Part shown: positions 2,719 to 36,558 of the stretch, one piece after another
Numbering within the stretch: the first letter of the stretch is position 1
How the letters are laid out: the number at the start of each line of letters is the position of its first letter
Assembly (NCBI GenBank): GCA_947306185.1
Contig: CAMZFU010000003.1
Coordinates: forward strand, 1-49,694
Origin: an uncultured Pseudomonadota bacterium
Lineage (GTDB): Bacteria > Pseudomonadota > Alphaproteobacteria > Rs-D84
Reading direction: 5' to 3'
Length of the DNA: 49,694 nt
The notes under the pieces: model-generated
The model's database searches: none
The model's input: the letters and a program-made list of their open reading frames with translations, nothing else
Told to the model about the DNA's origin: nothing
Translations under genes and position numbers: made by a program

Positions 2719-3912
2719 ATGGAAAATATGAACGGGCAACCACACCAATATTTTATTAAACGTGTATTTATATTTTTATGGCGCCATAAATGGTGGTCTT
2801 TGATTGTGATAGTAATTTTATGTTCGCTAATTATATGGTGGATTATATCGGTATACACGAATAGGATTGAATATGTAACACTAAATATATCACGGGGCGA
2901 TATGAGATATGTTGTTACCGCCACAGGCGAAATAAACCCAGTAAATACGGTTAGTGTCGGTTCCCAGGTGTCGGGTACAATTCAAGAAATTGCCGTGGAT
3001 TACAATTCGCGCGTAAAAAAGGGCGATTTATTGTTAACTATTGAACCGTCTGTGTTACAGGCATCTGTTGATGAATCGCGTGCGGCATTGGATGCGGCGC
3101 AATCTAAATTAAATCTTGCTAAAAATAATTATGAACGGGACAGCACGCTGTATAAAGATGGTTTCATTGCCCGTGCCGAAATGGAAGAATCCCAGGCAAA
3201 TTATGAACAGGCAATCCAAATGGTAAAACAGGCCGAATCACAATATGAACGGGCGGTAACAAACCTTGGGTATGCAACGATTACATCGCCGGTTGATGGA
3301 ACTGTTATCGCGCGCAAGGTGGATAAAGGGCAAACTGTTGCGGCATCTTTCCAAACCCCAGATTTATTCGAAATTGCCGAAGATTTATCAAAAATGCAAA
3401 TTGAAACCGCGGTGTCAGAGGCCGACATTGGTGTTATTCACGAAGGCCAAAATGTAACCTTTACCGTTGATGCATATCCACAAAAGAAATTTAATGGTGT
3501 TGTCCGGCAAATACGCCTTTCACCGACCACAACATCGAATGTTGTTGTGTATACTGTGGTGATTGATGTTGATAATGCTGATTTAAGTCTTATGCCTGGA
3601 ATGACCGCATTTGTGACGATACTTATCTCTGAGGCCAAAGATGTATGGAAAACACAAAATGCCGCTTTTTTAGTTCGTGATTATAAAAATATAATTCAAG
3701 ATATGAAGGAAGATGTAAAACCATCAGAAAAATTGGCAATTCTGCGTGAACGAAAAATCGTCTATATACCGTATACCAAGGGTTTGACCACCGCAACCGA
3801 AACACAAATTGTGTCTGATGAAATAAAAAATGGCGACCGCGTAATTGTTGGACGTGTCGGCCAATCGGCAAGTTCATCTGCAACCCAGGCACGTCGTCGC
3901 GGACCAATGTAA
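2719..3912 (+). CDS. MacA-like periplasmic adaptor (membrane fusion protein) of an ABC/RND efflux system
   Basis: N-terminal TM segment, VSVGSQVSG.I..VDYNS.VKKG, ITSPVDGTVI, GQTVAASFQTP.LF.IA.DL, LMPGMTA. Confidence 0.92.
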   Translation: MENMNGQPHQYFIKRVFIFLWRHKWWSLIVIVILCSLIIWWIISVYTNRIEYVTLNISRGDMRYVVTATGEINPVNTVSVGSQVSGTIQEIAVDYNSRVKKGDLLLTIEPSVLQASVDESRAALDAAQSKLNLAKNNYERDSTLYKDGFIARAEMEESQANYEQAIQMVKQAESQYERAVTNLGYATITSPVDGTVIARKVDKGQTVAASFQTPDLFEIAEDLSKMQIETAVSEADIGVIHEGQNVTFTVDAYPQKKFNGVVRQIRLSPTTTSNVVVYTVVIDVDNADLSLMPGMTAFVTILISEAKDVWKTQNAAFLVRDYKNIIQDMKEDVKPSEKLAILRERKIVYIPYTKGLTTATETQIVSDEIKNGDRVIVGRVGQSASSSATQARRRGPM

Positions 3913-33292: not shown

Positions 33293-33396
33293 TTAGTGTC
33301 AATGATAGTTGTTAGGGATTAGTAAACGGTTGCAGAAATGCAACCGTTTTTTATCCCCTTCGCATCGGATCCTGTAAAAACAAGGTGCCGGGCAAA

Positions 33397-33513
33397 GTTC
33401 CCCTCCGTTGGAGGGGTGGCCGAAGGACGGGGTGGTTAGAGTATTCAGGATAATTACGTGGTCTCGTACCACCTCCCGGCGTTCCATGCCGTACTCCACC
33501 ACAGGAGGAGAAC
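33397..33513. repeat. Palindromic non-autonomous element A (CCCCTCC-N4-GGAGGGG type), right arm decayed
   Basis: GTTCCCCTCCGTTGGAGGGGTGGCCGAAGGACGGGGTGGT...ACCAC...GGAGGAGAAC; termini GTTCCCCTCC / GGAGGAGAAC. Confidence 0.6.
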
Positions 33514-33548
33514 CAGGTCCGCAAAAGCCGATATCCCGTCACACATCC

Positions 33549-33667
33549 TTATTGTCATTCCGAGCGAAGCGTGAGAATCCAGTAAATTTGTTTTTGGTGC
33601 AGCTACCCACAGTTTTTTTTATACACTGGATTGCCACGGGGGTATTGCCCCCTCGCAATGACAATAA
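33549..33667. repeat. Palindromic non-autonomous element B (GTCATTGCGAG...CTCGCAATGAC type)
   Basis: Terminal inverted repeats TTATTGTCATTCCGAG / CTCGCAATGACAATAA (15 of 16 match); inner AATCCAGT / ACTGGATT. Confidence 0.8.
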
Positions 33668-33684
33668 AAAATACAGAACGCAAA

Positions 33685-33710
33685 GAGATCCCGACTTCTG
33701 TCGGGATGAC
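33685..33710. repeat. REP-like hairpin C (GATCCC...GGGATGAC half-element)
   Basis: GAGATCCCGAC TTCT GTCGGGATGAC. Confidence 0.55.
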
Positions 33711-33735
33711 GTTTCTTTTTTACTGGGGTAATGAA

Positions 33736-34686
33736 TTAATTTCCACTGGGGATATAAACATCTAAATCAGGGCCAGCAGTGAATTCCCCAGCCCCCTGAT
33801 TTGTAAAGAACGTATTACTAACCGTATCATACATACCCAATTTGCTATCACTATTGCGACGCGCCGGTATCATACTACGAACCAAAACATTATTTATATT
33901 TAAAGCAAATTTATATATTTTACCACGCACAATAGAAAGACCTTGCGTCACTGAACCATTATACCCCCCAAGTGCAAATATCATACACACTGATTTGTTT
34001 TGATTTAATCCACCCCAACTTGTGGTATTTCCTAATTGATTGTTTACATATAAAGTTTCTCTATAATTTTCATAGTTTATAACTATGTTATCCTTATTCC
34101 CAGTAAGTAGCTGTGTCGTACCACCTTGTTTAACACTATAATAACCTGAGACATATAATTGCATAAACGCATTTGCACCAACCCACCCATTATCGTTAGT
34201 ACTAAACTGTGCAACCATATCCATTCTGGCATTATCAGATTTGTTTATCCAAGTATTAGTATTAATATACTGTGTACCCGTACTCTCTATATATTCCAAT
34301 GCGGTGTATCCGGTTGGTAATATTTGTTGTGGCGATGTGTTTTTAATCTGCCATATTAAACACGTGCCGTCGGTATCCCAATCAATACAAATAAATTCGT
34401 TTTCCAATGCATTGTTAATTCCGGTGTTTGCGTCACCGGCCGTCACAAGTGATGAATATTGTGACACAAAATCGCCGCTAGAATCGTATACACCTTTTTC
34501 GCCGATATTACCCACGGTTCCCGTATGTGTTATTACCGTGTTATTATCAACCGCCGGGATTTTATCCTGTTTCGTCGCAAGTTCAGTATCAACATAGTTT
34601 TTCGATGTTATGGTTTTATCACCCGTTGCAAAAGCATTGGTGCAAATTATTGCAACAATTCCAATGATGTATAATAACTTTCTCAT
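33736..34686 (-). CDS. Secreted surface protein with C-terminal lectin-like module; paralog of 47-796
   Basis: Signal peptide (..CTNAFA|T), DKTITSKNYVD..L.TKQ, C.DW...TC..W, LPTGYTALEYIESTGTQYINT, GMYDTVSNTFFTNQGAGEFTAGP. Confidence 0.8.
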   Translation of the reverse strand: MRKLLYIIGIVAIICTNAFATGDKTITSKNYVDTELATKQDKIPAVDNNTVITHTGTVGNIGEKGVYDSSGDFVSQYSSLVTAGDANTGINNALENEFICIDWDTDGTCLIWQIKNTSPQQILPTGYTALEYIESTGTQYINTNTWINKSDNARMDMVAQFSTNDNGWVGANAFMQLYVSGYYSVKQGGTTQLLTGNKDNIVINYENYRETLYVNNQLGNTTSWGGLNQNKSVCMIFALGGYNGSVTQGLSIVRGKIYKFALNINNVLVRSMIPARRNSDSKLGMYDTVSNTFFTNQGAGEFTAGPDLDVYIPSGN

Positions 34687-34689
34687 GAG

Positions 34690-34708
34690 CCCCCCCCAAA
34701 AAAAAAAA
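34690..34708 (-). repeat. T11-G8 homopolymer pair 3 nt upstream of the start codon
   Basis: Plus strand C8 (34690-34697) and A11 (34698-34708); minus strand reads T11-G8-CTC-ATG. Confidence 0.9.
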
Positions 34709-34730
34709 TTGCAAAAATTGAACCGCCAAT

Positions 34731-34914
34731 GGAAATTGACGGTCGGGGTGTTCGAAAATCATAAAACACAATGACTCCGATGGCCTTTATATATACACCA
34801 CCGGCACCCCGACATTTCGGGGGTGTAATGACGATGCAAAACATGAAAATCCGATGGATTACGATGCCTTGCACCGGTGTTTTATGGGCTTTCGACAGCC
34901 CCAAACCAAATTCC
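34731..34914 (-). ncRNA. Structured 5' leader with C4/CI-antisense-like architecture
   Basis: Mutually exclusive stems: 34742-34750 with 34805-34813 (9 of 9 bp); 34760-34769 with 34877-34886 (10 of 10 bp); 34752-34757 with 34890-34895; internal direct repeats. Confidence 0.55.
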
Positions 34915-34931
34915 CATCTGGTTCGCTTTTC

Positions 34932-34961
34932 ATTATATCAAAAACGAGATTTTTTATGCAA
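34932..34961 (-). promoter_or_regulatory. Sigma70-type promoter for the leader and surface gene
   Basis: Minus strand TTGCAT-N18-TATAAT. Confidence 0.6.
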
Positions 34962-35025
34962 TTGATTTTTTATTGTTCTTGAATTTTGCTATATGTTTGC
35001 TATTCTTGTGCCAAAAGGAAGATGC

Positions 35026-36558
35026 ATGGATACGAATTATACTGTTTTAGCACGAAAATACCGCAGTCAAGATTTTCAATCACTTATCGGCCAAGATGTT
35101 TTGGTCAAAACTTTAACAACCGCAATTAAAACGGGGCGTATCGCACATGCGTATATATTTACCGGGATTCGTGGAACCGGAAAAACCAGTACTGCGCGTA
35201 TTTTGGCCAAGGCATTAAATTGTTTGTCTTCGGATGGCCCAACGGCAACGCCATGTGGTACATGCGAAAATTGTCGTGCTATTGCCGCCGGACAGCATAT
35301 TGACGTTTTGGAAATCGACGCGGCTTCTCATACCGGGGTTGATAATATGCGCGAAATATTAGATGCCGCGCAATATCGTCCAACAAATGGCCGTTACAAA
35401 GTTTATATAATCGACGAAGTCCATATGCTTTCCACCAGTGCGTTTAACGCATTGCTTAAAACATTAGAAGAACCGCCTGCACATGTAATCTTTATTTTGG
35501 CGACAACCGAAATACGGAAAGTTCCGGTAACGATTCTTTCGCGTTGCCAACGCTTTGATTTGGTTCGCGTGCCGGTTGATATACTTAAAAAACATTTTGC
35601 GTGGATTGCCGAACAAGAACAGGTTGAATTAACCGATGCGGCAAATGAATTATTGGCACGTGCGGCCGATGGTTCTGTGCGTGATGGGTTGTCTTTGTTG
35701 GACCAGGCGATTGCGCAGACCGGGGGGCACGTTGATGAAAATGCCGTTATGGATATGTTGAAACGTGCCGACCGTGGCGTGGTTGTTGATTTTATGCAAA
35801 CAATATTGTCGGGAAATGTCGCAACCGCAATGGCCAAGGCAGACGAGATTTACACTAATGGCGCAGATTTAACAATGCTGCTTACTGATATGATGGAATG
35901 GACACATTGGGCAACACGTATGCATCCCGTGTTGCACGCCGGCGAAAGCAGTAATATTCCATACACCGCCGATCAACGTGCACGCATAAATGAAATAAAC
36001 AAGCACGTATCGTTGAATACACTTTCCAGAATATGGCAGGTAATGGTTGCAGCGGTTCCAGAAATGGCCGCAGCATCAAATCAAAAGCAATGTTTTGATA
36101 TGCTAATTGTGCGGTTGATGCATATTGCAGATATGCCGTCTTTACCAGAAATGTTAAAGTCAGAAAAAGTTGACATGCCACGTGTACCACAGCAATCTGC
36201 ACCGGTAAAAAACGAAACTGTTCAGATTAAAACAGCAGCGGACCTGGCGGATTTGTTAAAGAACGCGCGTGAAATTATGCTTTATTCATATTTTACCAAG
36301 AACATAGAAGTTTGTGATATTAATGGCAATTGCATATCTTTCTTTGATCGTGGTAATGACGCGGATTTCCAAAAGAAATTATCATCATGGTTGAATACGA
36401 AAACCAATGAAAATTGGGAAGTGATTAAGGTCGAAGAATCGCATCAAAATCAAACAGTTCGTGAACAGATTGAAACAGATGTGGAATCTGATCCGATGGT
36501 CGCAGATGCAATGTCTTTGTTTGAAGGTGCCGAAATTGTCGGTATATCAAAACAATAA
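35026..36558 (+). CDS. dnaX: DNA polymerase III subunit gamma/tau (start at MDTNY)
   Basis: LARKYR, GIRGTGKTS.ARI, CGTCENC, EIDAAS, IDEVHMLS, LLKTLEEPP, SRC. Confidence 0.97.
   Translation: MDTNYTVLARKYRSQDFQSLIGQDVLVKTLTTAIKTGRIAHAYIFTGIRGTGKTSTARILAKALNCLSSDGPTATPCGTCENCRAIAAGQHIDVLEIDAASHTGVDNMREILDAAQYRPTNGRYKVYIIDEVHMLSTSAFNALLKTLEEPPAHVIFILATTEIRKVPVTILSRCQRFDLVRVPVDILKKHFAWIAEQEQVELTDAANELLARAADGSVRDGLSLLDQAIAQTGGHVDENAVMDMLKRADRGVVVDFMQTILSGNVATAMAKADEIYTNGADLTMLLTDMMEWTHWATRMHPVLHAGESSNIPYTADQRARINEINKHVSLNTLSRIWQVMVAAVPEMAAASNQKQCFDMLIVRLMHIADMPSLPEMLKSEKVDMPRVPQQSAPVKNETVQIKTAADLADLLKNAREIMLYSYFTKNIEVCDINGNCISFFDRGNDADFQKKLSSWLNTKTNENWEVIKVEESHQNQTVREQIETDVESDPMVADAMSLFEGAEIVGISKQ

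Follow-up and report, generated by a model that had tools for sequence, protein, structure and literature searches.

The T11-G8 tract that stands directly before the start codon of gene P0001, on the minus strand of contig CAMZFU010000003.1, may be an enlarged and slippage-prone ribosome-binding site (RBS) of an exported surface protein. The contig (C3) was analysed whole, and this stretch of 49,694 nt is called the window here; the genome from which it comes, that of an uncultured alphaproteobacterium of order Rs-D84, amounts to 1.05 Mb in 70 contigs, with 40% G+C and 74% completeness. In our preferred reading, to which we assign a probability of roughly 0.5, a strong G-type Shine-Dalgarno (SD) element and a U-rich spacer are coupled to the leader RNA upstream, and changes in tract length, occurring at modest frequency, tune expression. 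We regard the tract as a plausible mutable rheostat and as an unproven phase switch.

On the plus strand the order is CAT (34684-34686), GAG (34687-34689), C8 (34690-34697) and A11 (34698-34708). Read in the direction of the gene, T11 (34708-34698; U11 in the mRNA) is the spacer between the tail of the leader's terminator-like hairpin and the SD, G8 (34697-34690) is the putative SD element, and a 3-nt spacer, CTC (34689-34687), leads to the ATG (34686-34684). Positions 34684-34708 hold exactly these four parts, and the tract occupies -4 to -22 of the gene. The initial annotation had described G8, 3 nt before the ATG and with T11 directly 5' of it, as the only SD-like sequence of the gene. The sequence bears this out: from the leader terminator to the ATG, nothing else that is purine-rich resembles an SD. 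Within the window T11 is the longest A/T run and G8 the longest G/C run. With slip-prone lengths taken as at least about 7-8 for G/C and 9-10 for A/T, both runs are long enough to slip, each at the low end of the range, and they lie where phase-variable loci carry their repeats (the promoter, 5' untranslated region (UTR) or 5' coding part of a surface gene).

Duplex energies suggest that G8 is a strong SD. The 16S 3' tail is canonical (...GGATCACCTCCTT) in 13 genus genomes, and the anti-SD was taken from these (GGAUCACCUCCUU was used for the duplexes), the 16S 3' end being absent from the metagenome-assembled genome (MAG) itself. With this tail the window G8 has a predicted energy of -10.6 kcal/mol, compared with -10.9 kcal/mol for the consensus SD AAAGGAGG and -4.9 kcal/mol for AAAGGA, so that it is predicted to be as strong as the consensus. 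Its G run spans -11 to -4, within the distance of about 4-12 nt before the start at which canonical SDs complementary to the 16S tail are found. The usual SD of this genome is AAAGGA or AAGGAG, and GGGGG occurs within -22 to -3 of 6.5% of its long open reading frames (ORFs). For other lengths the predicted energies are -4.7 (G4), -8.4 (G5), -9.4 (G6), -10.3 (G7) and -10.8 kcal/mol (G9). An ON/OFF effect of slippage by one nucleotide, as the phase variation proposed in the initial annotation would imply, is therefore not what the modelling favours, the SD:anti-SD energy differing by so little between G6 and G9. One-step slippage would probably not abolish initiation, because the 3-nt spacer stays fixed and any run of at least six G next to it can pair in registers that lie 3-6 nt before the AUG.

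The window tract belongs to a family of leader copies whose core, AACACCCCGACCGNCA, was found 95 times in 46 of the 201 sampled genomes, all within the genus. These copies share a layout in which the hairpin is followed by a T-rich tail, a short A/T-rich spacer, a G-rich SD and the start codon. Downstream of the hairpin, the longest run of G measures 0 nt in 8 copies, 3 in 15, 4 in 33, 5 in 23, 6 in 13, and 7, 8 and 9 nt in one copy each. The G8 of the window is thus the second-longest G run among the 95 copies, and its T11 is the longest T run. The G run begins at -11 (family mode 10), as it does in the closest paralog, on contig C21 (A6-G6-CATAT-ATG); from the end of the G run to the start codon there are 3 nt (family mode 6, range 0-12), and from the leader core to the start codon 66 nt, compared with a median of 59. 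Runs of at least four G stand behind 76% of the leader copies but within 85 nt upstream of only 19% of 1013 generic ORFs, and for runs of at least five G the figures are 41% and 7.7%. The window copy is the RBS region of the family with both of its homopolymeric parts enlarged, and not a new element.

The structured leader that had been noted 5' of the tract is also present, with conserved elements and a terminator-like hairpin. The hairpin, GACCGTCAA-TTTCC-ATTGGCGGTT (34744-34721, minus strand; arms GACCGTCAA/TTGGCGGTT), is kept in all aligned leader copies and ends in the tail CAATTTTTGCAA (34720-34709). These 12 nt part T11 from the end of the hairpin at 34721, which rules out T11 as the U-tract of an intrinsic terminator. 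The leader core CACCCCGAC (34742-34750, minus strand), which carries a second C run, is invariant in alignment A1. Further upstream on the same strand are CCCCCGAAA (34823-34815), whose C5 run is predicted, by the minimum-free-energy fold and the pair probabilities alike, to pair with the UUUU-GGGGG junction, and GTCGGGGTG (34813-34805).

When the 5' UTR of the window is folded with ViennaRNA, the UUUU-GGGGG junction pairs with CCCCCGAAA and encloses the rest of the leader. The last four U of T11 are predicted to pair with GAAA beside the C5 run, and pairing of the G run, with the leader's C5 and C4 runs, amounts to about 72%. The duplex between the C5 region of the leader and the SD region of the window has a predicted energy of -15.5 kcal/mol, the second strongest among 55 SD regions modelled against this leader. 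In the folds of 58 copies, an SD G pairs with the 5' C run at a mean probability of 0.53, and about 90% of the G positions lie in pairs. In an in-silico series of G lengths, G5 is about 98% sequestered (unpaired 0.02) and runs of at least G7 are about 25% free, and in the corresponding series from T5 to T15 the accessibility of the SD does not change. The initial annotation had expected length changes to alter SD strength, spacing or pausing. In the models this holds for the G run, where SD energy and exposure are both graded, but not for the T run, which has no predicted effect on SD accessibility. It had also counted the tract and the leader as two layers of control. They appear instead to be one coupled system, in which the G run is predicted to pair with the C runs of the leader.

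A mechanism consistent with these observations can be outlined. T11-G8 is an expanded form of the leader layout, which runs from terminator hairpin through U/A-rich spacer and G4-G6 SD to start codon. G8 would act as the SD, with GGGGG pairing with CCUCC via one G.U wobble, and T11 would be a spacer lengthened by roughly 5-7 nt. Both runs may have arisen by replication slippage, which would recur at such junctions in the genus, so that the runs would be mutable on evolutionary time and probably variable at low frequency within populations. The present length would be an 'ON' configuration, and the gain or loss of one nucleotide would adjust the level of translation without switching it, mainly, we suspect, by altering the number of G's that escape pairing with the C5 and C4 runs of the leader.

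The genomic frequencies of such runs differ markedly between the single homopolymers and their junction. The own genome has six G/C runs of at least 8 nt, compared with about 4.3 expected, and three A/T runs of at least 11 nt, compared with about 2.4; these expectations were calculated by hand from its base composition, with positions taken as independent and identically distributed. For T>=11 followed directly by G>=8 the expectation is about 9e-6 per genome. Each run alone is thus unremarkable genome-wide, whereas the T-G junction is not a product of chance. Among the 201 genus genomes T7G7 occurs 31 times (in 27 genomes), compared with one occurrence of the mirror-sequence control and about one expected. 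Its contexts are of three kinds, namely hairpins with a C run, a T loop and a G run, G runs immediately after terminator T-tails, and sites directly before start codons. In the own genome about three of the eight most extreme tract loci adjoin genes of the P0001 family.

Length differences between sister species are seen at homologous tracts. In the SD of a methyltransferase-like gene, orthologous tracts at L123 and L129 have G9 and G7 (77% identity overall in the aligned region); at L102, L109 and L119 the same leader hairpin is followed by T7, T8 and T9 (about 95% flank identity); and L176 and L180 have C6-T7-G7 and C9-T8-G8 (92% flank identity). To judge from these alignments, leader-linked homologous tracts do slip over evolutionary time. 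Two further tracts, T9G7-at-ATG (protein MRFIFLFF...) and T7G7-cggt-ATG (MRRWIFIL...), stand before exported proteins behind a second leader type (CCTCCAACC...). At the position of the former, relatives have TTTTTgtacGGGGGGatt, gcatGGAGAGatt or AAAGGAA, and TTTTTgtacGGGGGG, GGAGAG or AAGGAA are also listed at that place for relatives of the tracts behind this leader type. Because these relatives carry such other sequences there, we infer that homopolymerisation of the RBS arose independently behind the second leader type.

Other accounts of the tract have to be set against this one. We consider it possible, if doubtful, that the expansion is neutral and fixed, such that mutational bias in a compact, AT-rich genome lengthened spacer and SD into a strong constitutive RBS whose length carries no regulatory meaning, with U11 perhaps serving as an S1-binding or standby enhancer. 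This would agree with where the G run starts and how long the spacer is in total, both inside the family range, with an SD energy at the consensus level, and with the ordinary frequency of either run taken singly. The many T7G7 sites in or behind terminators that have no adjacent start codon likewise suggest a mutational or structural by-product. However, the 31:1 asymmetry against the mirror sequence and the repeated occurrence of tracts directly before exported-protein starts, behind two leader types, suggest more than drift, and the strong link of G-run SDs with the leader suggests a functional tie. A classical contingency locus, in which frequent and reversible slippage in G8, T11 or both turns the surface protein ON and OFF, seems unlikely to us, although several features invite it. 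The gene whose RBS holds the tract belongs to a large and variable exported family with about 20 matches in the own genome; several of the longest homopolymers of that genome adjoin family members (T16 on contig C14, C13 on contig C56, and T11-G8 itself); T-G junctions are strongly enriched in the genus, with lengths that differ between sister species; and simple-sequence repeats (SSRs) in 5' UTRs are known to control adhesins and surface structures (PMC8295292, PMC12721329). Against this, G8 and T11 are about as short as phase-varying tracts get, and the genome has mismatch repair (MMR) genes and counts of G/C>=8 and A/T>=11 near random expectation. A change of 1-2 nt in either direction would leave the predicted SD strength and a usable spacing in place, SD exposure is predicted to respond to G length by degrees and to T length not at all, and the tract was assembled cleanly inside a 49.7-kb contig.

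An assembly or sequencing artefact, for example poly-G from two-colour chemistry or a collapsed or expanded homopolymer, is very improbable. Homopolymers do disturb assemblies of this kind, since in other MAGs several T7G7 sites are about 100-2000 nt or less away from the end of a contig, and one site is a T16-G9-TT-C13 at a contig start. The window tract, however, is unlikely to be of this origin because it lies in mid-contig, with the conserved leader on one side and, on the other, a homology-supported start codon at a family-typical distance, and an analogous A6-G6 junction is present in the C21 paralog. The T16-G9-TT-C13+ site is that of L192 (G182:C15:1-235), and together with the T7G7 sites near contig ends it indicates that such tracts may break assemblies.

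Several results weigh against a mutable, leader-coupled RBS and limit our confidence in it. A permutation test of the flanks of leader C runs against those of the SD detected no cis-specific covariation (P=0.28), and the lengths of G runs and C runs are uncorrelated (r=0.08), so that the predicted leader-SD pairing draws only on generic complementarity of C runs and G runs and on the thermodynamic model. G-type SDs are also present on paralogs that lack this leader. Exact-protein look-ups of P0001 and of DnaX, made for conspecific copies, returned no identical record, and a length-tolerant pattern for the locus had 0 matches in a scan of metagenomes. P0002 (78%), the nearest relative in the database, is orthologous to another paralog (on contig C47), stands behind another family gene and has no tract. 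Beside dnaX in the four nearest species, whose DnaX is 81-85% identical, there is no family gene and no orthologous tract. Finally, mutS (in the window) and mutL are intact, which rules out loss of mismatch repair as a driver. Campylobacter and Helicobacter are the classic genera with homopolymer phase variation, and the intact mutS and mutL set this genome apart from them.

P0001 itself (33736-34686, minus strand) was recognised as an ORF of 316 aa with a signal peptide, a TSKxYVD motif and, from an AlphaFold (AF2) model and Foldseek, a predicted C-terminal LamG/ConA-like beta-sandwich. The exported protein that the initial annotation placed behind the tract is upheld by a typical signal-peptide N-terminus (MRKLLYIIGIVAIICTNAFA|TGDK) and by a start codon that is well supported because paralogs open likewise (MRKYLLIIG..., MKKILLIIG...). 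The protein has about 20 paralogous matches in its own genome and 531 homologues in public data, and genus relatives carry 0 to 24 copies; sequence searches of Pfam, PHROGs, NCBIfam and PDB gave no match that would assign it to a family. The AF2 model, built from 47 sequences, has a mean predicted local distance difference test (pLDDT) of 75.8, with values >90 over much of residues 130-300. Its C-terminus is a beta-sandwich for which Foldseek ranks agrin, neurexin and laminin-G LG domains, pentraxins and a Bacteroides carbohydrate-binding protein best (E down to 5e-4). On this fold similarity 'exported lectin-like surface protein' is a fair label. Residues of about 120-310 form a module common to hundreds of genus proteins of 200-1700 aa, which is predicted to be a LamG/pentraxin/ConA-like jelly roll and is covered by no sequence family.

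Upstream, direct reading of the sequence suggests a near-consensus sigma-70-type promoter (34932-34961, minus strand; TTGCAT-18 nt-TATAAT with TG upstream of the -10), which implies a transcription start site that would give a 5' UTR of about 240 nt. A consensus promoter scan of 34600-35050 did not list this TTGCAT-18-TATAAT although it apparently satisfies the criteria of the scan. Among the leader-linked genes with a clear start, 43 of 55 encode a signal-peptide-like N-terminus, and a few leader copies sit before methyltransferase-like genes. Relatives with this leader are MAGs from rumen and gut that bear the labels Candidatus Enterousia sp. and 'Alphaproteobacteria bacterium'. By the gathering threshold of Rfam, the leader falls outside sRNA-Xcc1 (RF02221). 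Its score is 25.6 bits (E 0.19), compared with a gathering score of 53, and among 20 related leaders the best has 38.1 bits and six have E<1, all below 53. There was no match of the leader to the C4 antisense RNA (RF01695).

The locus as a whole may be an insertion. Next to dnaX, positions 33293-34992 of the window comprise a stack of palindromic mini-elements, the surface gene and its leader. This region looks like a 1.7-kb insertion cassette beside dnaX, and probably a lineage-specific one, because the four nearest species hold other genes upstream of dnaX: in G229, the nearest of them, the end of an infB-looking coding gene, and in G189 a tRNA. The infB-looking gene (G229:C29, L205) ends about 100 nt before dnaX. 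The 3' end of P0001 and the downstream elements of 33293-34992 are repeated almost exactly on contig C56.

Other homopolymeric loci of these genomes were seen in passing. The second leader type (CCTCCAACC...GGTTGGAGG, then CCTCCAACC and a terminator hairpin) precedes exported-protein genes at L178/L210 (G252:C17) and L187 (G100:C1), and in the own genome at C1:72300-72454 and on C33. BLAST with one copy found it in 121 of the 201 genus genomes, many of them multi-copy, and two copies have T9G7 or T7G7 at the RBS. At L123 (G135:C10) and L129 (G175:C39), and also at L072 and L122, the first leader type stands before genes that start MAKHTLDAANKAKNDEFYT, a DNA methyltransferase-like N-terminus; genes of this kind, of which two orthologs have G9 and G7 in the SD region, might encode a modification enzyme under phase variation. 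Recurrent hairpins of various genus genomes, with the pattern AAAAAATC(5-9)-T(7-9)-G(7-8)ATTTTTT, at L168, L175, L176, L180, L181, L184 and L189, resemble homopolymer-built bidirectional terminators. In the own genome a T16 (C14:3537-3552) lies 4 nt upstream of a TTGATT -35 (17-nt spacer, TATGAT -10) of the full-length paralog P0004, which starts at 3463 on the minus strand. The homologous site before the paralog on contig C42 is T7, and the T16 resembles rheostat-type T tracts beside the -35 of adhesin promoters. The C13 on contig C56 (983-995) was ruled out as a regulatory SSR of a paralog, as it lies downstream of the paralog, between it and a convergent RNase H gene.

From the perspective of the organisms concerned, the tract bears on how Candidatus Enterousia-like bacteria manage large families of exported proteins. 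Members of order Rs-D84 of this kind are uncultured gut symbionts with reduced genomes of about 1 Mb from which many pathways are missing (PMC12306168). Should the tract vary, this would give a first indication of simple-sequence contingency loci on lectin-like surface proteins in these bacteria, and the arrangement would be unusual in that the RBS itself is the hypermutable repeat, coupled to a leader RNA that acts in cis. If it is invariant, it is merely a strong and oddly homopolymeric RBS. A bolder proposal, which we put forward tentatively and think unlikely, is that a slippage-prone G-run SD is the cis target of the C runs in a c4/Xcc1-like leader, and that the G's beyond C5 set how far the SD escapes. 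Such a heritable, mutation-driven dial on an RNA switch would have evolved repeatedly, behind leaders of two families, and would serve to vary how gut Alphaproteobacteria with reduced genomes express their surface proteins.

Among known RNAs, sRNA-Xcc1 and the c4-type leader antisense RNAs of phage P1 invite comparison. The latter target the RBS region of the gene that follows in the same transcript. The sub-threshold RF02221 matches of our leaders have the closing helix and the two inner hairpins of sRNA-Xcc1, but the complementarity to the RBS is here only that of C run to G run, with no covariation. Homopolymers also drive phase variation in promoters, for instance in Neisseria porA and opc, Bordetella fim, Mycoplasma hyorhinis vlp and, as poly-G, Treponema pallidum tpr, where they act on transcription in or near the spacer between -35 and -10. 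T11-G8 is like these in being a homopolymer upstream of a surface-protein gene in a paralogous family. It differs in lying about 225 nt downstream of the putative promoter, in the 5' UTR at the RBS, and the T16 beside the -35 on contig C14 is a better fit to this class.

The closest published analogue in logic is the RepG/tlpB-hp0102 system of Helicobacter pylori (PMC8295292), and the next-closest is hmw1A of Haemophilus influenzae. In the latter a heptanucleotide SSR within the long and structured 5' UTR of an adhesin gene pairs with a G-rich region (PMC12721329), and expression scales with repeat number, with processing by RNase III (PMC12721329); it differs from the window in having heptamers where we find mononucleotide runs at the RBS. 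In H. pylori, a G repeat in the 5' UTR of tlpB, a surface/envelope-related gene, is paired by a C-rich RNA, and its strain-variable length has a graded rather than an ON/OFF effect (PMC8295292). The partner there is a trans-acting small RNA (sRNA), RepG, the repeat, of 6-16 G, is located 5' of the RBS, and MMR is lacking (PMC8295292). The window tract is not a repeat set apart from the RBS, and a separate trans-acting sRNA, for which no search was made, is not part of the arrangement found. The likeness is one of predicted pairing, drawn from sequence and models. It would place in a single mRNA what H. pylori divides between two RNAs: here the predicted partner is the leader in cis, the G run is itself the SD, and the MMR genes are present.

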